From contig CBDUPA010000005.1 in the NCBI GenBank assembly GCA_965368975.1, positions 224,001 through 288,000 on the forward strand: a stretch of 64,000 nt of DNA, read 5' to 3'. The stretch comes from an uncultured bacterium. GTDB lineage: Bacteria; Acidobacteriota; Thermoanaerobaculia; Multivoradales; JAHZIX01. Below are positions 1-28,081 of this stretch, piece by piece (the first letter of the stretch is position 1; every line of letters begins with the position of its first letter). Position numbers and translations under genes: made by a program. Under the pieces are notes generated by a model. It ran no database searches and was not told the DNA's origin. It was given only the letters and a program-made list of their open reading frames with translations.

Positions 1-2
1 GG

Positions 3-104
3 CTGTCGCAGGCGCAGACGGGAAAGCTCGATGACGTCCGGTCGCGGGCTCAAGAGCGTCTGCAACGTCGAGGGCAGAGAAGGGTTCGATGGAAGAAGGC
101 GTAA
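3..104 (+). CDS. Probable 3' end of an upstream gene, truncated by the window edge
   Basis: Frame 3 is open from the edge (LSQAQTGKLDDVRSRAQERLQRRGQRRVRWKKA) to TAA at 102-104, 19 nt before the TIR gene ATG. Too short to identify. Confidence 0.35.
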   Translation: MSQAQTGKLDDVRSRAQERLQRRGQRRVRWKKA

Positions 105-123
105 GCTATATGAAGGGGGTTAT

Positions 124-1791
124 ATGAGGGTATTCATTTCTTATTGCAGGGAGGATAAGCGCGTTGCCGATGAAGTATATCTTGGCCTGAGAGACCGAGA
201 CTTTCTTCCTTGGATGGATGAGCCTCCTGAACCTTACCACCTTGAGGGCATCAGACCCGGAGAGCATTGGAAGATTAGAATCGAGGAGCATTTGGGCCAG
301 TCTGACTTGGCGATTGTTCTAGTATCATCCATGAGATATTTGAAAAAGAGGCGATATTTTAACAATGAAATGAAGTTGATTTCAGATATCCGGGACTCGA
401 TGGCGGGGACCGAGATTTTTCTGGTACCGGTAGTGTTAGATGAGGCCCTCAATATCAATGAGGTTCGGTTTGGCCGATCAAATCTAGCCGATATTCACTA
501 CGTCAGATACTACGCTGGGGGAGTCGGACTTTTATTAAGCGGTCTGGAAGCGCTCAGAGAGAGCATCCAGAATCCCTTCTCTGAGTCACCGTTTGAGACG
601 AATGATGGCACTTGGCGTAGTAAAGAGCTTTCTGAGGAGGGGTGGGCGATTCTGTTCCCTGAGTCGGCAGGACCAGGCACAAGAGATGCGTTGAAGCCCT
701 TGATGGATCATCGTAGAAATCAGGTTGGGCCTTTGTTCAGAGAGTTTGAGTACAAGATGGGGGAATCGGTTCAGCAGTTTTTGGGGCGGAATGGTGCTGG
801 TGCAGGGGTTGTCAACCGAGCAATGATTCCTGCAAACATCCTGATCGTAGGTGACCCCGGGTGGACGGGTGACCCCACTTTGATACCATATGATTTTCAA
901 ATAGACCTAGGAATACAGTTTTCTGTAGGCAGACTAGCACTGGAAAAAGATGAAGATTTCTCTGTATATGCAAGTAAGTTAGTCTCATATGAGCGCGCTC
1001 TTCCTCGTGAGCCTTTGAAGCTTGGGCTTTTTGCCCCAGTTCATCAAGGAGACATAGTAAGCAAGATCGTCTTGGAGAATCTTGCCAATCCCCTGAAGCT
1101 TGGCATCTCAGCCAGGATCGGACCTGAGAAGGTTGATGAAGTATTTGGCTCTGTGGCTACGAAGGAGCGGCTGACAAGGATGATTTCGAACGCTCAGGGG
1201 GTCATAGTCTCGATGTCACACGGGGTTTCAGGTCAGAGCAGACAGACAAGTTCAATTCTATGTGCAGACTGGGAAGGAGTTGGGACACCGCTTTGCGATC
1301 AAGATCTGTTCTCTGAGGGAGATGTCTGCTCATTGACAAAACGAGGGGAAAGGGATGGGATTAATGGTTCAGTTTTCGTTATGTTTGAGGCGTATGGTTG
1401 TGGAGGTCTCCAAACTAAGAGCAGTGCTCCTTATGTTTCGGCTCTCAGTAATAGCCTTCTTGCTTGCCCGGGGATCTCGACTTTGGCAGTAGTCGGACGG
1501 CTGAGCGAAGGATCGACGTGCACCTTCGATTGGTTCGGAAGAGGCGGAGATGTATGGACGTATGTAATGTTAGTTGATTCTCTGATGACAGGTGCAAAGG
1601 TAGGGGAATCGTTGTCTTTCCTACGGGAACGACAAAAAGTTCTTGCAGGCCAGATAGCTAGCTTGACTGACTCACAGTTGCTCCGATTAGCATATCCTAG
1701 CGGCACTGAACTCCTGCGGTTATGGGACGTTTACAGAGATGCACGTGGATTCGTTCTCTTGGGTGATCCAGCGACAAGACTGATGAGGTAG
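124..1791 (+). CDS. TIR domain fused to a caspase/gingipain (peptidase C25-like) domain
   Basis: N-terminus MRVFISYCREDK..PWMD..IRPGEHW..YFNNE..FLVPVVLD is TIR_2-like with the catalytic-type Glu. C-terminal ~390 aa has GWAILFP, ILIVGDP, SVGRL, SHG and LLGDPATRL. Start moved from 31 to ATG 124, preceded by GAAGGGGG. Confidence 0.8.
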   Translation: MRVFISYCREDKRVADEVYLGLRDRDFLPWMDEPPEPYHLEGIRPGEHWKIRIEEHLGQSDLAIVLVSSMRYLKKRRYFNNEMKLISDIRDSMAGTEIFLVPVVLDEALNINEVRFGRSNLADIHYVRYYAGGVGLLLSGLEALRESIQNPFSESPFETNDGTWRSKELSEEGWAILFPESAGPGTRDALKPLMDHRRNQVGPLFREFEYKMGESVQQFLGRNGAGAGVVNRAMIPANILIVGDPGWTGDPTLIPYDFQIDLGIQFSVGRLALEKDEDFSVYASKLVSYERALPREPLKLGLFAPVHQGDIVSKIVLENLANPLKLGISARIGPEKVDEVFGSVATKERLTRMISNAQGVIVSMSHGVSGQSRQTSSILCADWEGVGTPLCDQDLFSEGDVCSLTKRGERDGINGSVFVMFEAYGCGGLQTKSSAPYVSALSNSLLACPGISTLAVVGRLSEGSTCTFDWFGRGGDVWTYVMLVDSLMTGAKVGESLSFLRERQKVLAGQIASLTDSQLLRLAYPSGTELLRLWDVYRDARGFVLLGDPATRLMR

Positions 1792-3129
1792 GCGATAGGC
1801 TGGATCTCCGAGGAGGATATAGTTCCTGGCATCTTCTAGCGCTAGCCACAGAGTGTCTTCATCTCTAGGCACTAACTGCGGCCCATTCTTTATTTTGCCG
1901 CCGTGTACTTCATTTATAAAAATACAGGCAAGTGCATTGTACCGAGCCTGGAAGTGCCTCATGGCATGGCCTGCCGGAGTGCCTGCTAGTAATTCATTAA
2001 TAACATTCGCGTAGGTTGCAATTTCGCTCGACGGATGCAGAAAGCTTATCGAAGTGTCCCATAACTGGCCAAGGTGCCCAATCACTGCAAGAGCTCCCCT
2101 GGACAGCGCGGTCTTCGCAAGAGCGGACAAGAAGCCTGATTGCGCGTTTTGTTGAGCTCTCTGGAGATTGCGATAATTGCTATGTTTCGGAGTGCCTGCA
2201 CCGCACGTTGTTAGAAGGAAGAGGATTAGTCCGTGCGCCAGTTCGGTAGGTAGATCATCTGATTGCAAGCAATGATCCAGATCTAGTGGCCAAGACATCC
2301 CGGGCCAGTCTTGGCATACAAAATCTCCTTGATGGGAGAACTGCTCGGGACGATCGATTGGAAAAGTAACACCATGGCCTGCAAGCAGGGCGATGTCGAG
2401 ACGTTCTCTCAGGGCAGCGATTAGGTTTTTCTTCGTGGCTGCATGACCGAAAAGCTTGACTATATTGCAGTCAACATCTACTCGACTTAGCTGATCTAGA
2501 ATGGGTGGAAAGAAATCATTATGGAGAACTTGGAGTGCTGGAGCTCCGTTGTGTTCGGCTGCGCAGAATAGTGTTTGGGCCCGGGTTCGTTCTTGCTGAT
2601 CTGAGACTGCCTTGAGAGCGTACTGGCGATAAGACTCAGCGTGATCGAAGTGAAGTCGACCTACAGCATAGGTAGCGGATAATTCTTGTTGTACGCTGAA
2701 TGATATCTCCTCTGGAGATCCTACAATCAAGATATAGTATGGCAACTTGAGAGGGTCTAGTGATCCTGCTCCGCACCCTAATCGATGAAGGAACTGGAAA
2801 GTTGAAGACTCTTGGAGTCCATCCTGAAAGGCGAGCTCTTTGTATAGATTGCCTGCTTCATCTTCTCTGCGATGCCTGAGAGGAGCCAGGGCTCTATATA
2901 TATCACTATCGGTTTCCTTTGGGAAGACTATGCACCAGCCGCTATCCTTGACCGTTGAGAGGTCTATGGGTTTAAGATGAGCTGTGGTTAGCCGGGGTGA
3001 ACTGGCAGCTTCTCGGGGTGATCGAAGGAGTCCTGTGTTCTCAGAAGCCCCTGGTTGGAGCGTGGCTCCAGAAGAGAAGTCAATCCCTATGGTTAGGGGC
3101 TCAGCCATCGTTTTGTGAAAAATTGTCAT
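1720..3129 (-). CDS. Stand-alone peptidase C25-like (caspase-fold) protein, paralogue of the facing gene's C-terminal domain
   Basis: GWCIVFP, PYYILIVGSP, YAVGRLHF, AGHG, TTCGAGTP, AVIGH and DARNYILLGDPAYRL align block-for-block with ORF 124-1791. The start may be the second Met at 3108 (MAEPLTIGID). Confidence 0.8.
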   Translation of the reverse strand: MTIFHKTMAEPLTIGIDFSSGATLQPGASENTGLLRSPREAASSPRLTTAHLKPIDLSTVKDSGWCIVFPKETDSDIYRALAPLRHRREDEAGNLYKELAFQDGLQESSTFQFLHRLGCGAGSLDPLKLPYYILIVGSPEEISFSVQQELSATYAVGRLHFDHAESYRQYALKAVSDQQERTRAQTLFCAAEHNGAPALQVLHNDFFPPILDQLSRVDVDCNIVKLFGHAATKKNLIAALRERLDIALLAGHGVTFPIDRPEQFSHQGDFVCQDWPGMSWPLDLDHCLQSDDLPTELAHGLILFLLTTCGAGTPKHSNYRNLQRAQQNAQSGFLSALAKTALSRGALAVIGHLGQLWDTSISFLHPSSEIATYANVINELLAGTPAGHAMRHFQARYNALACIFINEVHGGKIKNGPQLVPRDEDTLWLALEDARNYILLGDPAYRLPHQSCRWITQENESTCISVNVP

Positions 3130-3741
3130 CGTCTCGGGTTCTCGGCGAGGTGCTGTTTCTTCTTACAAACTTCCTGAGTGTTAGCAGGTCGAATCATGTG
3201 GGATCTTACATCATGCTGACCTCACAAGTGAGGAAAGTTGGCCGAGCCCATGAACCTGGGTGGAACCTGAATTGTGAAGAGGTTGAACTGTATGCATCCT
3301 GCTCCGCGGTTCCAAGCTCGCGTCTGGAGTTGGCGGCGTCACGAGTTGGAGATTCTGCGTCGCGTTTAAGGGTGTCCGATTTGTTAGTGCCGTAGAGGAG
3401 TTCTTGCTAGCATTATTCATGTTTGTCTGCAATTAGTTTCTTGAGATTGGATGTGGCTAAAGGGGATGCTCTGTCAAGAGTGTGATTAGGGCGATGTCCG
3501 TGTCTGCCGGCCGGAGAATATGACATGGTTCGACGGGGTGTGGCTATGGGGGCACGGAGAAGGTTAGCGGGAAACGCCGCTCGACCATCAGGAAGCCAAA
3601 CTTTCGGCGAGACCTGCCGCGGTGGAGCGGCTCTTGGAATCCATTCAAGACTCCAGCTTGCTGCAAAGATCCTCTCGCTGCGTCCTGAAAGCAGCCTACC
3701 CGGGGCTCGACGAGATGAGGTTACCGGGCTGACTTCCCGCC

Positions 3742-4527
3742 CTACGACGACGCCGACGCGTAAGCTCGCAATCCCCGGCGCCAGAACCAGAGCGTGAAGA
3801 GCGAGAAGGCCACGACGATGGCGAGGGCGTGCAGCAGCGTCCCGAGGGTCAGGCCGTCGAACAGGACGTGTGCCGGGATCGAGCCGAAGAAGGCCAGGGG
3901 TAGCACGGTGATCATGGCGATGCGTAGCCAGCTGCTGTAGATCTGGTGCGGCCGCTCGGCGAGGTCGCTGAGGCGCCAGGAGACTTCGTCCAGGCCGCGG
4001 CTGCTGTGCAGCCAGAAGACCGGGATGATGAAGATCATGCGGATCAGGTACTCGACGATGACACCGATCCCCAGGAAGCCGAAGTAGGTCATGATCGAGA
4101 CGGTGCCGAGCGGGTCCGGGTAGCGGCTCAGGGCCCAGGTCACCAGGCTTCCAGCCATCAGCATGTTGACGAACGAGTTGGCGGCGAAGTCGCGCAGGCT
4201 GAGCATGAACAGGGAACTCACCGGCCGCACCAGGTAGTAGTCCAGATCGCCGCGGTTGATGAAGATGGGCAGCCACCAGAGGTTGTTCGAGAACACCGCC
4301 ATGATTACGGCGTCGACCAGCAGCAGGCCGCAGATGAAGATGTAGACCTGGTCCAGCGTCCAGCCACCGAGGGCCGAGGTGTGCTGGTAGAGGATGGTGA
4401 AGAAGGCGAGGCTGATGCCGTAGTAGGCGAGATCCATGAAGATGCGGAAGAAGAAATCCATGCGGAATTCCAGGGCTCGGCTGAAGGAGAAGCGCAGGAA
4501 GCCGAGGTAGAGGTAGAAGTAACGCAT
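3742..4527 (-). CDS. ABC-2 family permease (DUF990/ABC2_membrane_6-like)
   Basis: Multi-TM protein with GGW, INRGDLDYYLVRPVS and P..IY..W motifs. Start taken at MRYFYL (4527), 4 nt from the upstream stop. Confidence 0.85.
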   Translation of the reverse strand: MRYFYLYLGFLRFSFSRALEFRMDFFFRIFMDLAYYGISLAFFTILYQHTSALGGWTLDQVYIFICGLLLVDAVIMAVFSNNLWWLPIFINRGDLDYYLVRPVSSLFMLSLRDFAANSFVNMLMAGSLVTWALSRYPDPLGTVSIMTYFGFLGIGVIVEYLIRMIFIIPVFWLHSSRGLDEVSWRLSDLAERPHQIYSSWLRIAMITVLPLAFFGSIPAHVLFDGLTLGTLLHALAIVVAFSLFTLWFWRRGLRAYASASS

Positions 4528-5374: not shown

Positions 5375-6414
5375 GCTTCGCCCTCCTCTGGCTGCTGCTG
5401 GCGCGCGCGCAGCAGGCCCTCAATGATCGTGCCGACATCCTCTTCCTCGATCGCCAGGTCGACCACGGGGAAGCGCTGTAACAGCTCGGCAGCGGCGCGG
5501 GTGACGTCGGCGCGCGGGACTTCCAAGCGAACCTCAATGTCGGTACAGCTGAGCACGCGGCCCAGATCCTGGAGCTCGTCGTCGCGGGGGATCCGGCACG
5601 GAGTCTCGAGGCTGTCTCGCAGTGCTTCCGGCAGGACTCCTGGATCTAGGCGGGCGGTAATGATCTTGTGGCGCGCGAAGCGTTCGATCACCTGTTGTAG
5701 CGGGCCATCGTAGACCAGCTCGCCTTCGCGCAGGATCAGAATTCGTTCGCACAGGCGCTCGATGTCTTCCATGTAGTGGCTGGTCACCAGCATCGCTGGC
5801 TGATGCTCCTGCCGGTATTCGAGCAGGAACTCGCGCACCGCACGTTGTGCCGACAAGTCGAGACCGATGGTGGGTTCGTCCAGGTAGACGACGCGCGGCT
5901 GGTGCAACAGGGCGGCGATCAGCTCCATCTTCATGCGTTCGCCGAGCGATAGGCGGCGCAGTTGGATGTGTAGCTCGTTCTGGACCTCGAGCATCTCGGC
6001 CAGGGTGTGCAAGGTGTCGCGGAAGCGGGCGTCGGGGATGCGGTAGATCTCCTTCAGCAATAGGAAGGAGTCGGCGGCCGGCAGGTCCCACCACAGCTGC
6101 GCTTTCTGGCCCATGATCAGTGCGATCTGCCGGCGCATACGATCGTCGCGCTTCCACGGCACGTGACCCAGGACGCGTGCGTCGCCGCCGCTCGGGTGGA
6201 TGATGCCGGCCAGCATCTTGACCACCGTCGTCTTGCCGGCGCCATTGGCACCCAGCAGGCCGACGATCTCGCCTTCATCGACGCGGAAGCTCACGCCACG
6301 CACCGCTTCCTTGGCCACTTTCTCGCGCAGTAGCAGTGACTTGACGGAACCCCACAGGCCGGGCTGCTTGCGATGGACGTAAAAGGTCTTGCGCAGATCG
6401 GTGGCTTCGATCAC
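5371..6414 (-). CDS. ABC transporter ATP-binding protein
   Basis: Walker A GANGAGKT, signature LSLGERMK, Walker B VVYLDEPTIGLD, H-loop TSH. Confidence 0.95.
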   Translation of the reverse strand: MIEATDLRKTFYVHRKQPGLWGSVKSLLLREKVAKEAVRGVSFRVDEGEIVGLLGANGAGKTTVVKMLAGIIHPSGGDARVLGHVPWKRDDRMRRQIALIMGQKAQLWWDLPAADSFLLLKEIYRIPDARFRDTLHTLAEMLEVQNELHIQLRRLSLGERMKMELIAALLHQPRVVYLDEPTIGLDLSAQRAVREFLLEYRQEHQPAMLVTSHYMEDIERLCERILILREGELVYDGPLQQVIERFARHKIITARLDPGVLPEALRDSLETPCRIPRDDELQDLGRVLSCTDIEVRLEVPRADVTRAAAELLQRFPVVDLAIEEEDVGTIIEGLLRARQQQPEEGEA

Positions 6415-8693
6415 GGGGCTGGTGTCCTCGGGGCTGGTGTCCTCGGGGCTGGTGTTCTAGGGGCTGGCTCGTCCACCGCGCGCAACGCTCCGCCCTCGGT
6501 CAGCTCATAGCTCGTACCGACGGCCACGTCGGTGAAGGTCTGGACGCCGCCGCCGGGCCAGCGCACTTCCAGGCTGTCGATCTTCTGCGCCTGGCCGACG
6601 CCGATCTCCTGGCGCAGGGGGGAGCCACCGAAGGAGCCGCCGGTGCCGACCAGCCGGTGCACGCTGCGCTGGCGTGCGCCGTCGCGGAAGGTGAGCGTGA
6701 GGCGAGCGCCGATGGCGGCCCGATTGCTGCGTTGGCCGTGCAGGCGCAGCTTGAGCCAATGATTCTTGAAGCCAGGGTTGCGGTAGAGCACGCTGGGGTA
6801 GTTGTCGCCCGGATAAGCGCCGCCCATCTGCTCGAAGACATCCTGGTCGCCATCTTCGTCGACGTCCGCGAAGGCGACGCCGTGGCCTTTCTGCAGGTGG
6901 CCGAAGCGGCCGGCGAAGGAGACGTCGACGAAGCGCTGACCGCCATCGTTGCGGTACATCAGGTTGGGCATCAAGGCCTCGAAGGGCGGCACGCCGGTGC
7001 CTAGGTAGACGTCGAGGAAGCCGTCGTTGTCGAGGTCACCGAAGTTGCTGCCCATCGGCAGAGCGGGTGCACCCAGGCCGAGTTGACGACTGATCTCGGT
7101 GAAGCGATGGCCGCCGGGGGCTTGTGGGTCGGCGCCGTCATTGCGATAGAGGCGCGGGTGAAAGCTGGTCACGGGGGCCTCGGTGGCGCTGGCGGCGAAG
7201 TAGAACCTCGCGATGTCGATCGTGCCGGCGTTGTAGTCGTTGACCCACAGGTCGAGGTCGCCGTCGTTGTCGTAGTCGAAGAACCAGGTGGCGAAGCTGC
7301 GGTCGCGCGGGGCATCGACACCGAGCTGGGGCGCGACATCGGTGAAGGTGCCGTTGCCGTTGTTGCGCCACAAGCGGTTGGGGCCCAGGTTGGAGGTGTA
7401 GAGGTCGGGGTCGCCATCGTCGTCGTAGTCGCCCCAGGCGACGCCCTTGGTCCAGTGCACCCCGTCGGCAACGCCAGCCTGGCGCGTGACGTCGGTAAAG
7501 CGCAGGCGGCCGGTCGCCGCGTCGAGATCGTTGCGGAAGAGCTGTGACGGATAGGCGCCGCCGTAGGGACCTTCATTGCCGATATAGAGGTCGAGGTCAC
7601 CGTCCAAGTCGTAATCGGCCCAGGCGGCGGTCTGCGTTGGGTAGGCGGGCGTGGCCAGGCCGGCTTCGGCGGTGACGTCGACGAAGTTGCCCGAGCCGCC
7701 ATTGAGCAGGAGCGAGTTGCGCATTTGGCCGTCGGCACCGAACCAGCCGCCGCGCAGCACCAGGATGTCGAGATCGCCATCGTTGTCGACATCGGCGTGC
7801 ACCATGTTGAGACCGCCCAGCTGGCCGTGCAGGCCGGCGGCTTCGGCACCTTCGGCGAAGTGGCCGCGGCCGTCGTTGACAAAGAAGCGCAGGTGGGAGC
7901 ACGGGTCGATCGCCGAGGTGACGACATCGAGATGACCGTCGCCGGTGAAGTCGTCGATCAGAGCACCGCCCGAGGTGTCGTTGATGTGCAGGCCGGCGTG
8001 ATGCGCCGTCTCGGCAAAGGCGGGGAAGCTTTCGCTCGACTGCAGGCGCCGCGGCGGAATGCGCAGCGCTGGCGGCAGCTCTGCTTGCGTGCCCAGCGTC
8101 ATGGCGGCGACGTTGAGCAGCCAGCGAGCCACGATGTGGCCCGGGATACCGGATAGTACTCCCGTGAAGGCGCGAACCGCCGCTTCCGAGCCGCGCCGGT
8201 CGACGTGCCGGCCGCCTTCGGAGATCGGGAAGATGCACATTTCCGGCGTGTGATGGCCGATGCAATTGCTCACTTCGCCCAAGCGCAGAGACGCCAGCCC
8301 GAGGTCCATCAGAATCTGCATCTGCAGCCGCACATCGAGGCGTGCCTGCGATGCCAGCTGCAGCGCCAGCTGCAGATTCTCCTGGGCCTCGGCGTTCTGG
8401 CCCAACCGCAGCTGTTCCAGGCCGAGTTTCTGCAGCCCGCGCGCCTGGGCGTCGGCGCCCTGGTCCGCGCGCTGCAGCCGCTGGCCCAGCTCGACGACGT
8501 GGCGGACTCCGTAGTATTCATTGTCGCTCTGGCGCAGCTGGTGGCACATCTCTAGAAACTCGCGCCGCGTCTGCTCGGGAGTTGTGGCGGCGGAAGCTGG
8601 TGCTGCTGTCAGCCATCCCCAGGGCAGCGCCAAGGTGCAGAGCACCGGGAGAAAGAGTCGCGGAGACGGTAAAGACATCGACGGCATTCTCAT
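6411..8693 (-). CDS. Exported CRTAC1-family protein (TPR-like N-terminus, FG-GAP/VCBS repeats, ASPIC/UnbV C-terminus)
   Basis: Signal-like hydrophobic N-terminus, seven D.D.DG..D repeats, C-terminal NHWLKLRL.G..SNRAAIGAR...G.G....ID.LEVRWP. Start uncertain (8693, 8687 or 8678). Confidence 0.85.
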   Translation of the reverse strand: MRMPSMSLPSPRLFLPVLCTLALPWGWLTAAPASAATTPEQTRREFLEMCHQLRQSDNEYYGVRHVVELGQRLQRADQGADAQARGLQKLGLEQLRLGQNAEAQENLQLALQLASQARLDVRLQMQILMDLGLASLRLGEVSNCIGHHTPEMCIFPISEGGRHVDRRGSEAAVRAFTGVLSGIPGHIVARWLLNVAAMTLGTQAELPPALRIPPRRLQSSESFPAFAETAHHAGLHINDTSGGALIDDFTGDGHLDVVTSAIDPCSHLRFFVNDGRGHFAEGAEAAGLHGQLGGLNMVHADVDNDGDLDILVLRGGWFGADGQMRNSLLLNGGSGNFVDVTAEAGLATPAYPTQTAAWADYDLDGDLDLYIGNEGPYGGAYPSQLFRNDLDAATGRLRFTDVTRQAGVADGVHWTKGVAWGDYDDDGDPDLYTSNLGPNRLWRNNGNGTFTDVAPQLGVDAPRDRSFATWFFDYDNDGDLDLWVNDYNAGTIDIARFYFAASATEAPVTSFHPRLYRNDGADPQAPGGHRFTEISRQLGLGAPALPMGSNFGDLDNDGFLDVYLGTGVPPFEALMPNLMYRNDGGQRFVDVSFAGRFGHLQKGHGVAFADVDEDGDQDVFEQMGGAYPGDNYPSVLYRNPGFKNHWLKLRLHGQRSNRAAIGARLTLTFRDGARQRSVHRLVGTGGSFGGSPLRQEIGVGQAQKIDSLEVRWPGGGVQTFTDVAVGTSYELTEGGALRAVDEPAPRTPAPRTPAPRTPAP
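6415..6467. repeat. 15-bp tandem repeat (3.5 copies) encoding (PAPRT)n
   Basis: ggggctggtgtcctc x2, ggggctggtgttcta, ggggctgg. Confidence 0.9.
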
Positions 8694-8891
8694 GCTGTGA
8701 GCATAACGTGCCGAACGCGCGAGCGGATGCGGTCGACGCAGGGACGTGGTTGGCGTTCCTGGGCACTTCGTGTATCCTGCCAACTCTGGCGGTGCAAGCT
8801 ACTTGCGAGGCAGGGCGACGGACGCTCCTGGCCGAACGCCAGCTCCATTGAGTTCCACTTTCGATTCGACCGGCGGAAGAAAACCGAGATC

Positions 8892-23494: not shown

Positions 23495-24442
23495 ATGAAA
23501 CGAACTCTCTTCTTGCTCACGCCGATCTTCCTGATCGTCATTGGCGTCTTCTACTACACGGCCTACCGCAAGACGCGCTCCCAGACCATCGTCTACCAGG
23601 CCCCCGGCGCCGACACTGTGCGCGTCGAGAAGGACCTGATCTACCTGCCGGTGGACGACGAGCGTCCGAATGGAGACACCGCTCGGGCCTTCGACCTGTA
23701 CCTGCCGCCGGAGCCGTCCGCGCAGCCGCTGCCGGTCGTCGTCCTGGTGCATCCGGACGGTCCCGCCAGCGTCATCGACAACTTCAAAGACTGGGGCCAG
23801 ATGACCTCGTGGGCCCGCACCTTCGCCGCCTCCGGCCTGGCTGCCGTCACCTTCAATCGGAGTTCCACCGAACTGCTGAAGGACATCGAAGTTGTCGCCG
23901 CCGAGGTCGAGGCGATGCTGGCCTACCTCCAGCAGCACGGCGAACGCCTCGGCATCGATCCACAGCGCATCGGCATCTGGGCCAACTCCTCGGCGCCGCC
24001 GTTCGCCCTGCGTGCCGTCCTGCGTGATCGTCCCGCAAACGTGCGCGCCATCGCCATCTACTACGGGGCCGTCAGTTTCGACGCCTTCCCGGCCGTGCAC
24101 ACGCGCGACGCCGAGCCGAGCCTGTGGCACGAATTCGATCTCGCCCGTCATCTCGGTGCATCGGGCCACCTGGACCCACCATCGACCGACGCTGAGAGCG
24201 GCCCCGTCCAAGATTTGCCCGCCATGCTCGTGGCGATCGCCGGCAAGGACACCCCCGAGCTGAACACCGCCCTCACCAACTTCATCGATGCCGCACGCGC
24301 CCACGGCGGCGACGTCACCGTACTCGAACATCCCGAAGGCGACCACGCCTTCGACCTGGGTAGCGATACCGACACGACGCGCAACATCGTGCGTCAGACC
24401 ATCGAGTTCTTCCAACATCACCTCACGGAGGCCCGAGGATGA
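23495..24442 (+). CDS. Membrane-anchored alpha/beta hydrolase (dienelactone-hydrolase-like)
   Basis: N-terminal TM, FDLYLP, VVLVH, GIDPQRIGIWANSSA (atypical nucleophile elbow), GKD, GDHAFD. Confidence 0.75.
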   Translation: MKRTLFLLTPIFLIVIGVFYYTAYRKTRSQTIVYQAPGADTVRVEKDLIYLPVDDERPNGDTARAFDLYLPPEPSAQPLPVVVLVHPDGPASVIDNFKDWGQMTSWARTFAASGLAAVTFNRSSTELLKDIEVVAAEVEAMLAYLQQHGERLGIDPQRIGIWANSSAPPFALRAVLRDRPANVRAIAIYYGAVSFDAFPAVHTRDAEPSLWHEFDLARHLGASGHLDPPSTDAESGPVQDLPAMLVAIAGKDTPELNTALTNFIDAARAHGGDVTVLEHPEGDHAFDLGSDTDTTRNIVRQTIEFFQHHLTEARG

Positions 24443-27285
24443 GCTTCCAGACCCCGACTTTCGAGCCCGGAGACACCGTCTCCCACCGCCACAACCCAGA
24501 CCTCGGCCCCGGCCGCATCGTCAGCCTCGATCCGCGGCGCATCCAGGTCGAGTTCCCCGACGCGCGCAAGGTTCTGTTCATCTCCGCCGCCGCCGATGCC
24601 CTCGAAAGGCTGGAGCTACACGCCGGCGGTAAGGCGCGCTATCGCGTCACCGGCAAGAAAGTCGGCTTGGTCAAGCCGAGTGACGACGGCGAGCACTGGC
24701 ACCTGACTAACGGTGAGACCGTTCTCGCCTCCGAGTTGTTGCCGCTGCCGCAGCCGCCGTCACCGTTGGAGCGTCTGGCCTCCGGCAAGGTCGACGCCTT
24801 CGAAGACTTCCGCAACCGCCTCGACGCCCTGCGTCTGCTGCGCCTGCGCGAAGCTCAGGGCCTCGGCTCCTTCCTCGGTGGCCGTATCCGTCTCTTCCCG
24901 CACCAGCTCTACGTCGCCGAGAAAGCCTGCCACAGCGATCCCGTGCGCTGGCTGCTGGCCGACGAGGTCGGCCTCGGCAAGACCGTCGAAGCCTGCCTCA
25001 TTCTGCAGCGCCTGGTGCACACGGGGCGTGCCGGTAAGATCCTGGTGCTGGCGCCCGAAACCCTCACCGTGCAGTGGCTCGGCGAGCTGTGGCGCAAACA
25101 CCACCAGGTCTTCGCCCTGCTCGACCACAAGCGCCTCGCCGACGTCCACCGCGACTTCGGTCGTCGTCTCAACCCCTTCGAGGTCTACACCCGCGCCATC
25201 CTCAGCTTCGAGCTGCTACAAGAGCGGCCCAGCCTGGCACGCCAAGCCGTCGAGGCCGGCATCGACCTGCTCGTGGTCGACGAAGCCCACCACCTCAAGC
25301 GTCCGCCCAAGCACAGCGGCAACCTGCTCTATCGCGCTGTCCAGCGCATTACCAAGCAGGGCAATCACGTGCTGCTGCTCTCCGCCACACCGCTGGAAGA
25401 AGACGCCCACGGCTTCTTCCGCCTGCTGCAGATGCTGCGACCGGAAGAGTTCGCCGAGTCCTCCAGCTTCGAGAAGCGTCTGCGGGCACGGCGCCCCCTG
25501 CCGCCTTGCACCAGCGCTACCCGCCGCCGCGACATCGGCGGCCTGCCGCCGCGCAAGGCCTTCCCGGTCAACCTGCGCAAAGTCGACTGGGCCCCCTGGT
25601 CGCGCATCGAACTCGAACTCCGCCGCCTGACGGCACGCAGTCCCACGCAGCGCAAGCGCCGCCTCGAGCAGCTCGAGCGCTCCCTGTCCTCTCCGGCGTC
25701 CCTGCTCAACCTGTTGGACATCGAAGAGATCAAGGAACCGGTCGATCCGAAGGCCGAGGACGGCAAGAAGAACGGGGACAGCAAGAAGGTCGAAACGCCC
25801 GCGGAGGCGCCCGTCGCAGCAGCCGCACCGGCACCGCCGACCAAGCGCATCGGCAGACCCAAGGGCACGGCGATCGACGAAGAAGAGTACCCCGGCGAAG
25901 GCAAACCCCCGAGCCGTCGTGGCCGGGCCGCCCGCGGCCGTGGCCGCTGGCGCCGCCGCCGGGGCCGTGGAGAGGAGGGGGGCGTCAATCCGGTCGAGAT
26001 CGAGACCAAGGTCGCCGAACTGGCGCGTGACCTGCTCGACGACAACGACGCCGCCGATCCCGAAAAGGATCCCCGCCTCGCCTGGCTGCTCGAACAGCTG
26101 CCGCAGTGGCGCAAAGACGGCGACAAGGTCCTGCTTTTCGTCGCCTGGAAAGACAGCATGGACGCGCTCAAGAAGGCGATCGAGTGGCACGGCCAGACCC
26201 GCGTCAGCCTGTTTCACGAAGAGCTTTCCCCTGAGCGCCGCGACCTCGAAGTCGCGCAGTTCCGCCTGCCCGAAGGCCCCACCTTGCTGCTCTCCACCGA
26301 GTGTGGCGGCGAGGGTCGAAACTTCGAGTTCTGCCGCCGCCTGGTGCTCTACGATTTGCCCCTCGATCCCGCCAAAGTCGAGCAGCGCATCGGCCGTCTC
26401 GATCGCATCGGCCGTAAAGTGCCCACCGAGATCGTCTACTTCCGGCCACCCCGGGGCCTCGGCCGCGTCGCCGTCGAGTTGTACGAGAAACTCGGCGTCT
26501 TCCGCGAACCGCAAAGTGGCATGGTGCGCGAACTCGATCGCATCGCCGAGCGTCTGCGCGACATGGCTCTGGCCAAGCGTCCCCCCGAGCCCGACGCCTT
26601 TGACGATCTCCTCGACTCCGCACGAAAGAGCCGCAACCGCATCCGCCGTGCCGCCTACCACGAGCTGCACCGCGCTCCCTACCGCCGCCGCATGGCCAAG
26701 GACATCCTCCAGCGCGTGCCACCCGACCTCGACGAACTCAACGAAGACGTCGTCCTGCGCGCCGCCGCCCGCTTCGGCTTCAAGATCGAGGAACGTCGCG
26801 GCCCCCGCGCCAACTACATCGAACTAGGCTCCGAAGCCCTGGTCGACCGCCTCCCCGGCGTCAAACCCGGCTCCCGCTTCCTCGGCACCTTCGACCGCGA
26901 ATTCGCCGTCGAAGACGAAGGCATGGACTACTTCGCCTCCGGCCACCCCCTGGTCGAGGGTGTCCTCGCCGAACTCGAAGACGGTCCCCGCGGCCGCTCC
27001 GCGGTCTTCCGTCTGGACGGTGACGAAGAAACCTTCGGTCTGCTCGCCCTCTACAAGAAAGGCCCCGAGTTCGAGGCCGTCGCGGTCGATAGGGAAGGCA
27101 ACAAGCGTCCCGACCTGGTGCAGATCATCCTGGAAGGCGAACAGAAGGTCCATCGCGTCGATGCCCCCAAGTGGACCGGCCAAGCCGGCTGGAAGCCAAC
27201 CCTGGAGCGCATCGCCAAGTACCTGCCGCACGATCGTCCACAAGCGGTAGCGGCGTTCCGCGTCAAGAAGGTGACCGGGGACTGA
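24439..27285 (+). CDS. SNF2-family helicase/ATPase, RapA/HepA-like
   Basis: FPHQL, LLADEVGLGKT, QW..EL, VVDEAH, LLLSATP, GGEGRNF, EQRIGRLDRIG, GTFDRE.A, GHPLV. Confidence 0.88.
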   Translation: MSFQTPTFEPGDTVSHRHNPDLGPGRIVSLDPRRIQVEFPDARKVLFISAAADALERLELHAGGKARYRVTGKKVGLVKPSDDGEHWHLTNGETVLASELLPLPQPPSPLERLASGKVDAFEDFRNRLDALRLLRLREAQGLGSFLGGRIRLFPHQLYVAEKACHSDPVRWLLADEVGLGKTVEACLILQRLVHTGRAGKILVLAPETLTVQWLGELWRKHHQVFALLDHKRLADVHRDFGRRLNPFEVYTRAILSFELLQERPSLARQAVEAGIDLLVVDEAHHLKRPPKHSGNLLYRAVQRITKQGNHVLLLSATPLEEDAHGFFRLLQMLRPEEFAESSSFEKRLRARRPLPPCTSATRRRDIGGLPPRKAFPVNLRKVDWAPWSRIELELRRLTARSPTQRKRRLEQLERSLSSPASLLNLLDIEEIKEPVDPKAEDGKKNGDSKKVETPAEAPVAAAAPAPPTKRIGRPKGTAIDEEEYPGEGKPPSRRGRAARGRGRWRRRRGRGEEGGVNPVEIETKVAELARDLLDDNDAADPEKDPRLAWLLEQLPQWRKDGDKVLLFVAWKDSMDALKKAIEWHGQTRVSLFHEELSPERRDLEVAQFRLPEGPTLLLSTECGGEGRNFEFCRRLVLYDLPLDPAKVEQRIGRLDRIGRKVPTEIVYFRPPRGLGRVAVELYEKLGVFREPQSGMVRELDRIAERLRDMALAKRPPEPDAFDDLLDSARKSRNRIRRAAYHELHRAPYRRRMAKDILQRVPPDLDELNEDVVLRAAARFGFKIEERRGPRANYIELGSEALVDRLPGVKPGSRFLGTFDREFAVEDEGMDYFASGHPLVEGVLAELEDGPRGRSAVFRLDGDEETFGLLALYKKGPEFEAVAVDREGNKRPDLVQIILEGEQKVHRVDAPKWTGQAGWKPTLERIAKYLPHDRPQAVAAFRVKKVTGD

Positions 27286-27295
27286 GAGCGTCCTG

Positions 27296-28081
27296 GTGGA
27301 CGAAAAAACGAGGCGCGCCCTCAACGCCATCAACCGCCACTTCTACCAGCACCACGCTGAGCGCTTCAGCGAGACTCGCTCGAAGCCTTGGCAAGGTTGG
27401 GATTACGTCGTGCGTCGCTTGCTGGAACGCTCGGTAGGGAAACCGGCGGAGCCTTTGCGCGTGCTGGACGTGGGCTGTGGCAACGGGCGGTTCGGGGAGC
27501 TACTGCACCAGAAGTTCCCGCGGGCCGTCGAGTACCTCGGCATTGACTCCAGCGCGCCGCTCCTGGAGCACGCGCGCGCGCGACTGCAGGGGCGAGGGGA
27601 CTGGGATGTCGAATTCGTCCAGCACGACTTCGTGGAAGCTGGGCTGGCAGAAGTGGTGGGCGAGCGATTCGACCTGGTGGTGCTGTTTGGCGTGCTGCAC
27701 CACATACCGGGTGCCGAGGTGCGACAGCGCTTGGTCGGAGAGTTATTGGGGAGCCTGGCGCCAGGTGGGGAGGTGGTGCTGTCGGTGTGGCGCTTTGCGG
27801 AGGACCCGCGGTATGAGCGTCGCGTGGTGAGCTGGGAGGAGCACAACGCGTGGGTGCGGGAGAGCGGGGTGGGCGTCGAGATGCTGGTGGATGCTGGGGA
27901 GGTCGAGGAGGGGGATGTGTTGCTGCGGTGGGGTGGGAGGGAGTCGAGTTGGTGGCGGTATTGTCATGCGGTGGGGGAGGGGGAGTTGGGGGAGCTGGTG
28001 AAGCGGGGTGGTGGGATTGTGGTGGAAGCGGGGGTGGGGGATGGGGGGAATGGGTACTGGTGGGTCAAGTTGGAGAGTTGA
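27296..28081 (+). CDS. Class I SAM methyltransferase, Trm9/ALKBH8-like
   Basis: FY..HAERFSETRSKPW, LDVGCGNGR, GIDSS..LL, FD....GVLHH, L.PGG...SVW, RYCH...EGEL: the motif order of Trm9-type tRNA carboxyl methyltransferases. Confidence 0.8.
   Translation: MDEKTRRALNAINRHFYQHHAERFSETRSKPWQGWDYVVRRLLERSVGKPAEPLRVLDVGCGNGRFGELLHQKFPRAVEYLGIDSSAPLLEHARARLQGRGDWDVEFVQHDFVEAGLAEVVGERFDLVVLFGVLHHIPGAEVRQRLVGELLGSLAPGGEVVLSVWRFAEDPRYERRVVSWEEHNAWVRESGVGVEMLVDAGEVEEGDVLLRWGGRESSWWRYCHAVGEGELGELVKRGGGIVVEAGVGDGGNGYWWVKLES

Follow-up and report, generated by a model that had tools for sequence, protein, structure and literature searches.

A TIR domain fused to a gingipain-like domain, with a free paralogue of the latter, on a low-GC islet: a possible two-gene cell-death module in an uncultured member of the Multivoradales

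Why should a TIR domain be fused to a protease-like domain, next to a second, free-standing copy of that domain, on a small islet of DNA that differs in composition from its surroundings? This question is raised by two genes, here called A and B, at the start of a 64,000-nucleotide (nt) stretch of DNA (hereafter the window; positions 224,001 to 288,000 of contig CBDUPA010000005.1, or G000:C5:224001-288000 in our numbering) from the 7.1-Mb genome of an uncultured bacterium of the Multivoradales (Acidobacteriota; assembly GCA_965368975.1). Gene A codes for a TIR domain followed by a domain resembling the C25 peptidases, which we designate C25L (C25-like), and gene B codes for a free C25L protein. 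The interpretation that we favor, though tentatively, is that the pair represents a cell-death or abortive-infection module of two genes gained by horizontal transfer, in which A is a TIR NADase effector and the pairing of its pseudo-protease domain with B gates the TIR. It builds on what we observe of the domain identities, the fold, the foreign composition, the columns of the catalytic dyad, and the genomic associations of the C25L family.

The shared domain aligns between residues 169 to 553 of A and residues 60 to 447 of B (26% identity; E = 2e-35), and both proteins keep the invariant H-G, C-x-D-W-x-G, and G-D-P-A motifs of the family. Neither of the two open reading frames (ORFs) is interrupted, and each covers the whole domain; family profile A2 aligns with each at full length (positions 53 to 468 for A and 20 to 474 for B), and the Pfam Peptidase_C25 model scores both below its cutoff of 23 bits (A, 14.8 bits; B, 18.4 bits). 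Searches of PDB sequences with the family profiles gave spurious PPR-repeat matches or none, and the fold was assigned by structure comparison. The model of B (predicted local distance difference test [pLDDT], 84.6; predicted template modeling score, 0.86) matches the gingipains Kgp (PDB code 4rbm; Z = 25.9; root mean square deviation, 3.5; 318 aligned residues in both catalytic subdomains) and RgpB (PDB code 1cvr; Z = 25.4; model residues 56 to 452 on chain residues 4 to 351), the gingipain matches covering 309 to 318 residues at 12 to 14% sequence identity (Foldseek E = 3e-9). The Z scores are about 17 for separase, about 16 for the CHAT proteases, about 11 for metacaspases and MALT1 (10 to 11 for caspases and metacaspases), and about 10 for caspase-8, with 10.2 for the caspase-8:c-FLIP complex (PDB code 3h11). 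By this comparison, the modeled C25L fold is clearly and specifically gingipain-like, with two subdomains. An earlier reading of this DNA from its letters alone (the sequence-only reading) had described a TIR domain with a catalytic-type Glu fused to a C25/caspase-like domain; its fold call was right and can now be narrowed. The likeness to RgpB and Kgp (MEROPS family C25, clan CD) comprises the whole catalytic-domain fold and the retained His-Gly, whereas A and B differ from them in the low identity, the subcutoff Pfam scores, the absence of Ig-like or secretion domains after the fold, the displaced or lost Cys, and the genomic context, which for C25L is that of STAND/CHAT conflict systems and not that of secreted virulence proteases. 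The domains of A and B are not recent duplicates, since each comes near the end of the match list of the other (places 325 of 369 and 353 of 371). No other members seen are as divergent: identity to the rest of the family is at most 33% (A) and 37% (B), whereas other members share about 40% among themselves.

Two alignment columns bear on whether such a domain is a protease. Among 169 family domains from proteins P0001 to P0151, one column is His in 158, and the other holds Cys in 134 domains, Ser in 16, Glu in 5, and Ala in 4. The family consensus at these dyad columns, ..SHG.. and ..FACYGAGTP, fits the His-Gly/Ala-Cys signature of clan CD peptidases. The domains with Ser or Glu at the nucleophile column keep the His. 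In A, the SHG is likewise kept (His366; nt 1219-1221), and the second block reads FEAYGCGG, with Ala423 (nt 1390-1392) at the Cys column and Cys426 three residues past it. In B, a GHG is kept (His252; nt 2374-2376), and the second block reads LLTTCGAGTP, with Thr308 (nt 2206-2208) at the Cys column and Cys309 (nt 2203-2205) one residue past the consensus position, a register that recurs in 2 of 168 other family domains and in another TIR-C25L fusion, L097. Thus, the contention of the sequence-only reading that the free paralogue carries the same motif blocks stands for the domain at large, but the nucleophile is not among the common blocks. Rather than the nucleophile, it is G-A-L-L-C-Q-D-W-P-G that varies least across the family (Cys in 154 and Trp in 158 of the 169 domains), which is present as CADW in A (Cys380) and CQDW in B (Cys272). 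Conservation of C-x-D-W above that of the nucleophile raises the question of the role of the conserved cleft in the family. Other highly invariant residues lie in the N-terminal subdomain (Arg88, Arg158, Tyr170, and Gln147 in B numbering). Proteins with tandem copies often pair one copy bearing the His/Cys dyad with one degenerate copy (e.g., P0006, P0008, P0010, P0011, and P0013).

The N-terminal domain of A was recovered by the Pfam TIR_2 model (PF13676) well above its gathering threshold (51.4 bits against a cutoff of 28). Its Glu82 occupies a column that is Glu in all six aligned TIRs (that of A, two stretches of another protein of the same genome, two from L080, and one from P0016); in a weak alignment (E = 0.5), it also falls on Glu77 of the SPARTA TIR-APAZ chains, which we take to be their catalytic residue. 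The best PADLOC matches, themselves weak (E = 1.5e-5), are to the short-pAgo (SPARTA-type) TIR and SAVED_TIR models, with ThsB lower (E = 0.028); two other TIR-C25L fusions give the same order with stronger matches (E = 1e-15 to 1e-17). These likenesses point to a TIR of the NAD-cleaving effector type, its partner domain being gingipain-like here and not APAZ/pAgo or SAVED as in the systems that supply the best matches, whose TIRs are effectors activated by assembly. We base the TIR identity of A on these profiles and not on the structure model. Elsewhere in the genome, the TIR of A finds matches (E = 3e-9) in two TIR-like stretches of a 444-aa ORF (G000:C1:577856-579187).

Homotypic assembly of the two C25-like domains had been conjectured in the sequence-only reading, and the conjecture has gained ground. 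Complex prediction with residues 159 to 555 of A and 50 to 452 of B, each with a 34-row alignment, gave scores of 0.71, 0.71, and 0.68, against 0.01 for the best of three controls; of 157 solved complexes, 116 reach the pass mark, as do 2 of 215 mismatched pairs, counts that apply only approximately here because the alignments were self-built. Contact agreement between the runs is at least 68%, the partner pLDDT is at least 81, and the interface predicted in silico is pseudo-symmetric, centered on helices 502 to 513 of A and 395 to 407 of B. The prediction supports an A-B heterodimer; two or three C25L copies, moreover, occur within single polypeptides in 15 of 151 family proteins. A paralogous clan CD pair with at least one degenerate member that is predicted to heterodimerize recalls caspase-8 and c-FLIP, a pseudo-protease paralogue that regulates its caspase-fold partner, by analogy only: the predicted interface is built on helices, and the output would be a TIR activity, not proteolysis.

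From these elements, we infer the NADase activity, the logic and direction of gating, its trigger, and the defensive role. A would be the effector, a TIR NADase of the SPARTA or TIR-SAVED type tethered to a clan CD gingipain-like pseudo-protease that has lost the nucleophilic Cys of its family, and B would be a free-standing, diverged version of that fold. The gingipain-like domains of A and B would form a pseudo-symmetric heterodimer, and this pairing, rather than proteolysis by A, would decide whether the TIRs meet and degrade NAD+. Such control could run along either of two routes: B might keep A off and be removed or remodeled in response to phage or stress, or a ligand or peptide held in the conserved His/C-x-D-W cleft might drive higher-order assembly.

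That cleavage switches on the TIR had been offered as the alternative to assembly, and this proposal is weakened: A lacks the consensus Cys, as do four of the five TIR-C25L fusions found, and the Cys of B is one residue off. We regard proteolytic switching as the weaker reading because both window copies keep the His without the consensus nucleophile, as in those four fusions. In its most explicit form, B, or the A-B complex, would cut the linker of about 35 residues that joins the TIR of A to its C25L domain (residues ~129 to 164), and the freed TIR would oligomerize; we consider this highly doubtful. The low confidence of the model in the linker is in keeping with it, but no cleavage site can be named in the linker, the consensus nucleophile column lacks Cys in A and in B alike, and TIR domains that are free generally depend on a scaffold for assembly. 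The family pattern of a constant C25L domain with variable effector domains does speak for it, following the same logic as the auto-proteolysis proposed by Kaur et al. (2020) for the EACC1-caspase system, where a constant caspase domain is likewise combined with variable effectors (PMC7159879).

The other TIR-C25L fusions set the pairing reading in perspective. We recovered four, all of which align with A along their entire length: L080, from a Thermoanaerobaculia metagenome-assembled genome (27% identity to A; E = 4e-54; Cys at the Cys column; gene GC content of 0.49 in a locus of 0.67), and three from metagenome contigs, namely, L097 (28%; Glu at the column with Cys at +1; 0.56 in 0.58), L098 (28%; Glu; 0.48 in 0.57), and L099 (27%; Asp; 0.48 in 0.54). 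Among the five fusions including A, the consensus Cys is missing in four (Glu, Glu, Asp, and Ala) and the His is kept in all five. The lone TIR-C25L gene of L080 (L080:9533-11236) forms about 1.7 kb at 0.49 GC within DNA of 0.70 to 0.75 GC, and this, together with the low GC of L098 and L099, suggests that TIR-C25L genes spread as small inserts of foreign DNA. Just 5' of the L080 gene lies a 188-aa ORF carrying part of another TIR_2 domain. In P0016, the order is reversed, with C25L first and TIR second. Exact peptide patterns recovered no close relative of A from the metagenome contigs. In 28 of 80 metagenome loci, TIR ORFs related to that of A occur just upstream of nSTAND1 genes. In those loci (L141, L145, L147-L151, L154, L157-L163, L165, L168, L169, L174, L175, and others), short TIR ORFs lie about 150 nt 5' of nSTAND1 NTPase ORFs of about 1,160 aa.

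The nearest described layout is that of type IV Thoeris, the recent finding that brought TIR plus caspase-fold immunity to light in bacteria. There, a short free TIR makes N7-cADPR, which activates ThsE, a protease that carries a C-terminal sensor domain and for which Cys129 is essential (Rousset et al., bioRxiv 10.1101/2024.10.24.620036); in the portion at hand of a report on further Thoeris types, caspase-like effectors are mentioned for type IV only (10.64898/2025.12.03.692087). Our locus is likened to type IV Thoeris in that it combines a TIR bearing a catalytic-type Glu with a clan CD fold in a compact two-gene module for which an abortive-infection logic is plausible, yet it is not a member. 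Here, the TIR is fused, the fold is that of gingipains, the consensus Cys is missing from both copies, and the partner is a paralogue encoded by a convergent gene; the same two ancient immune folds are joined differently. A comparable relay, in which a signal made by the TIR of A activates B as a protease (through His252 and Cys309 or another Cys) that degrades cell proteins, seems to us unlikely. It would account for the shared layout and for the retained His-Gly of B with a Cys adjacent to the consensus position, and the invariant Arg88, Arg158, Tyr170, and Gln147 could form a ligand pocket. Against this stand the fusion of the TIR to the Cys-less copy in place of a free, short TIR; the gingipain two-subdomain fold of B, which resembles caspases and metacaspases only at Z = 10 to 11 and has no extra C-terminal sensor domain, the protein ending about 20 residues past the fold; the leaning of the TIR profiles to effector-type TIRs; and the lack of a free partner beside the other TIR-C25L fusions. 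Moreover, B matched no Thoeris effector at E values up to 1 among the NCBIfam and PADLOC profiles, a comparison made without the ThsE sequence.

Composition sets A and B apart from their surroundings (Table 1). Gene A has a GC content of 0.49 and gene B of 0.50, against 0.654 for the genome and 0.64 to 0.74 for the flanks in composition profiles, so the inference of the sequence-only reading that the DNA is compositionally foreign is borne out. The islet, of about 3.4 kb, contains the two genes in convergent orientation; GC drops within window positions 51 to 150 and recovers after about 3500. The same reading had allowed that genes further to the left might belong to the module, which is not supported by what lies there: the 5' neighbor is a 520-aa ORF with nonribosomal peptide synthetase (NRPS) condensation-type motifs, at host GC, with its stop at window position 104. 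Because this ORF ends, and the GC drops, at that point, the islet comprises two genes and nothing to their left. The 520-aa ORF follows an NRPS megasynthase ORF of >2840 aa, both at host GC (L001:2-10104, equal to G000:C5:214002-224104), these two assignments having been made by reading translations without a profile search. The ATG of gene A lies 20 nt past the stop of the NRPS gene and is preceded by GAAGGGGG. On the other side, the 612-nt spacer is followed by an ABC-2 transporter operon on the other strand, at host GC. Within the 72-nt overlap of the two genes, the gene B side encodes solely its nonconserved, low-confidence tail (residues 448 to 469; model pLDDT of <50 for residues 452 to 469).

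Table 1. Coordinates of the two genes, their domains, and the islet in the window
Feature	Position (nt)	Strand	Remarks
Low-GC islet	105..3500	.	~49-51% GC, from composition profiles; NRPS cluster on one side, ABC-2 transporter operon on the other
Gene A, TIR + gingipain-like (C25L) domain, 555 aa	124..1791	+	
TIR_2 domain of A (residues 3-128)	130..507	+	Pfam E = 1.8e-13
Catalytic-type Glu82 of A	367-369	+	
C25L domain of A (residues 165-553)	616..1782	+	Family hidden Markov model (HMM) E = 6e-111; AlphaFold2 blocks mostly >90
Overlap of convergent 3' ends, 72 nt	1720..1791	.	
Gene B, free C25L protein, 469 aa	1720..3129	-	
C25L domain of B (residues 56-452)	1774..2964	-	Family HMM E = 7e-139; gingipain fold
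Noncoding spacer 5' of gene B, 612 nt	3130..3741	.	Presumed site of the gene B promoter

Marks of the mode of arrival were sought at the islet, where neither a tRNA gene nor any notable direct or inverted repeats in the flanks were found. The islet DNA was not found in the 20 relatives searched, in which matches are limited to the NRPS parts and one ABC-permease stretch; none of these relatives belongs to the same genus, so that an empty site is not demonstrable from them. The spacer (3130-3741) has three small ORFs in it or at its edge with no Pfam match, no trace left of C25L, CHAT, or nSTAND1 or of the recurrent neighbor proteins described below, and, in a promoter and terminator scan, nothing above shuffled expectation, a result that applies to the scan as a whole. 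An Rfam scan of window positions 1 to 4200 gave only a subthreshold small nucleolar RNA match inside gene B, which we take to be due to chance.

The two genes belong to a much wider family. A HMMER search of 1.84 billion proteins with a profile built from A, B, and one relative recovered 3841 cluster representatives at E ≤1e-3 and 1951 at E ≤1e-30; word-indexed protein searches had yielded one relative with A and none with its TIR part alone. Even its closest relatives share no more than 37% identity with B, and those with names are labeled "hypothetical," save one JGI entry, "Peptidase family C25." The sources of the named members include Acidobacteriota, Chloroflexota, cyanobacteria, and Myxococcota, and within the order of the host, the family is present in 25 of 41 genomes, its own included. 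A Pfam scan of the 54 top representatives placed 41 at or above the C25 cutoff (23 bits); fused domains among the 54 include nSTAND1 (five cases), Endonuclease_NS (four), CHAT (three), Trypsin_2 (two), and, once each, TIR_2, Peptidase_S8, FHA, DUF900, an LCAT/PGAP1-type lipase, and HEAT. On plasmids, 6 of 72,556 records match B, the two loci examined having the same CHAT/nSTAND1 company as the genomic ones; the Prokaryotic Genome Annotation Pipeline labels these copies "C25 family cysteine peptidase."

Gene neighborhoods tie this family to STAND and CHAT proteins. Across 80 related genome loci, CHAT occurs within 3 kb in 47, nSTAND1 in 26, and either in 59; for the 49 loci of at least 15 kb, the last figure is 42. 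The CHAT matches overlap the C25L domain itself in 1 of 84 cases, and as the 7.1-Mb host genome has 22 CHAT ORFs in total, adjacency by chance would be expected in a few per cent of loci. Pfam analysis of 55 chosen neighbors identified nSTAND1-WD40 giants, CHAT-nSTAND1-WD40, CHAT-nSTAND1-FGE-sulfatase, CHAT, CHAT-SIR2_2, NACHT, and kinase-TPR architectures. A recurrent gene order consists of C25L, a protein of 255 to 320 aa with no Pfam match, CHAT or CHAT-SIR2_2, and nSTAND1-WD40 (L010:9851-18332, L050:9872-18572, L006, L007, L008, L029, and others); the small proteins of L010, L050, L031, and L054 form one family (25 to 28% identity). A second recurrent neighbor is a family of 440 to 470 aa, also with no Pfam match and with 40 to 62% mutual identity (L005:11298-12611, L043:8295-9665, L070:8227-9630, L058:11238-12620, and L074:11825-13192), whose gene in L074 sits between two C25L genes. 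C25L thus emerges as a large, uncharacterized family tied to parts of STAND/CHAT conflict systems and often catalytically degenerate.

This company has been described in general terms by Kaur et al. (2020), the available text of which presents STAND NTPase "conflict systems" as combining constant caspase-superfamily domains, often in catalytically inactive copies, with many effectors (PMC7159879). The C25L family shows the same arrangement of a constant domain with alternative effectors and has nSTAND1, CHAT, and TCAD7 neighbors; the terms "C25" and "gingipain" have no occurrence in the main text of that paper (PMC7159879); its source data may list the family as "caspase." In the EACC1-caspase system, the product of the 5' gene is EACC1, a small protein that contains a transmembrane helix (PMC7159879). 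No EACC1-like gene adjoins A and B, where the candidates are the three spacer ORFs with no Pfam match and the NRPS gene upstream of A; the order within A, with TIR N terminal, is the reverse of that in the EACC1-caspase system, where a constant N-terminal caspase-superfamily domain precedes the variable effector. The wider C25L family shares with that system the constant domain with a variable effector, a likeness that falls short of an established clade link.

With CHAT or nSTAND1 within 3 kb in 59 of the 80 related loci, a role in conflict or cell death is plausible. The window contig, in turn, has no CHAT or nSTAND1 gene, and this difference is one argument for a further alternative, which we hold to be distinctly unlikely, that A and B are an orphan or decaying fragment of a larger STAND/CHAT system, either nonfunctional or acting in trans with CHAT or STAND proteins encoded elsewhere. 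It would also fit the divergence and missing consensus Cys of the window copies and the context of the third C25L gene of the genome (544 aa), which lies in an operon between TPR-CHAT (1053 aa) and TCAD7-CHAT (617 aa) genes (G000:C24:26517-33141, equal to L082:7517-14141, minus strand) and, at 0.61 to 0.64 GC, is near the host value and native-looking. A decaying fragment is hard to square with the intact reading frames of 555 and 469 codons at 50% GC, a length not expected by chance, and with the retention of the conserved core motifs; moreover, the L080 fusion stands alone as a single-gene low-GC insert.

A bolder generalization, which we put forward as doubtful, is that C25L constitutes a widespread, undescribed, and largely nonproteolytic regulatory module of bacterial STAND/CHAT death systems, and that dead clan CD domains, together with a paralogue, gate a TIR NADase in the TIR fusions in a manner like that of c-FLIP and caspase-8. 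If so, pseudo-caspase regulation would have its counterpart in bacteria, in the shape of a new anti-phage system of one or two genes that is dispersed in low-GC inserts. Were our reading right, the locus would offer a tractable two-gene case for the control of TIR enzymes by a pseudo-protease, thousands of proteins labeled "hypothetical" or "C25 peptidase" would be STAND/CHAT parts missed by PADLOC 2.0, and annotators would have a reason not to call them, by default, active gingipain-like peptidases. The family lead, with its thousands of C25-like proteins beside CHAT and STAND, is probably worth more than the single locus.

Several observations weigh against the gated-NADase module. With regard to the proteins, B may still be a protease through Cys309; the TIR part of the full-length AlphaFold2 model of A is unusable (pLDDT of <50, with two alignment rows there); the passing score for the complex may in part reflect a likeness to solved clan CD dimers, the A-B pair being the one scored and not the homodimers; and the divergence of A and B, with their near-worst mutual match, could reflect relaxed selection. 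With regard to the genes, A and B are convergent and do not form an operon, and no second C25L gene was found in the flanks of any of the other four TIR-C25L fusions (0 of 4, three of the contigs being <5 kb); since these mostly short flanks lack one, B is no general requirement for TIR-C25L. As for defense, PADLOC, which holds no model for the C25L part, gave only generic ABC-ATPase, methyltransferase, and helicase matches among 20 neighboring ORFs, so that no defense island is apparent at the locus. Viral contigs yielded no relative of the family by four peptide patterns, and tblastn with B had no match in 50,697 phage records. The sequence-only reading had cast the locus as a candidate defense or cell-death module; the role itself remains plausible from the family context, and the local setting does not bear it out. 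Its admission that it recognized no named system agrees with our PADLOC, NCBIfam, and literature searches, which gave no named system for A or B; in full-text searches, judged in part by title or abstract, no paper linked C25 or gingipain-like domains to TIR or defense systems.

The lack of a phage or defense-island link is also what speaks for a nonimmune role, housekeeping or developmental, such as regulated NAD+ turnover or self-recognition in a complex lifestyle, which is the least probable of the readings considered here. The presence of the family in 25 of the 41 genomes of the order would suit it, and Table 1 of Kaur et al. ties such systems to a multicellular habit (PMC7159879). It does not sit well with the foreign composition and the patchiness of the pair, as judged by the 20 relatives in which the islet DNA was not found and the metagenome scan without a close relative of A, or with the variable effector fusions, which are typical of conflict systems. 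On balance, the pairing-gated TIR module remains the reading that we prefer.

The rest of the window furnished one candidate defense gene and one further protein of note. The strongest PADLOC match among the neighbors is a SNF2 helicase (948 aa) at 24.4 kb, 21 kb away, which was recovered by the DpdE, DrmD, and BrxH models (E = 2e-52); we rejected it as a defense gene, as it has a RapA_C domain and is probably a RapA-type RNA polymerase recycling factor with a housekeeping function. It is followed by a gene for a class I methyltransferase-fold protein (stretch 24439-28081, plus strand, for the two). Nearer the islet, a 790-aa FG-GAP_3/UnbV_ASPIC protein (6411-8783, minus strand) has three tandem PAPRT repeats at the end of its C terminus.

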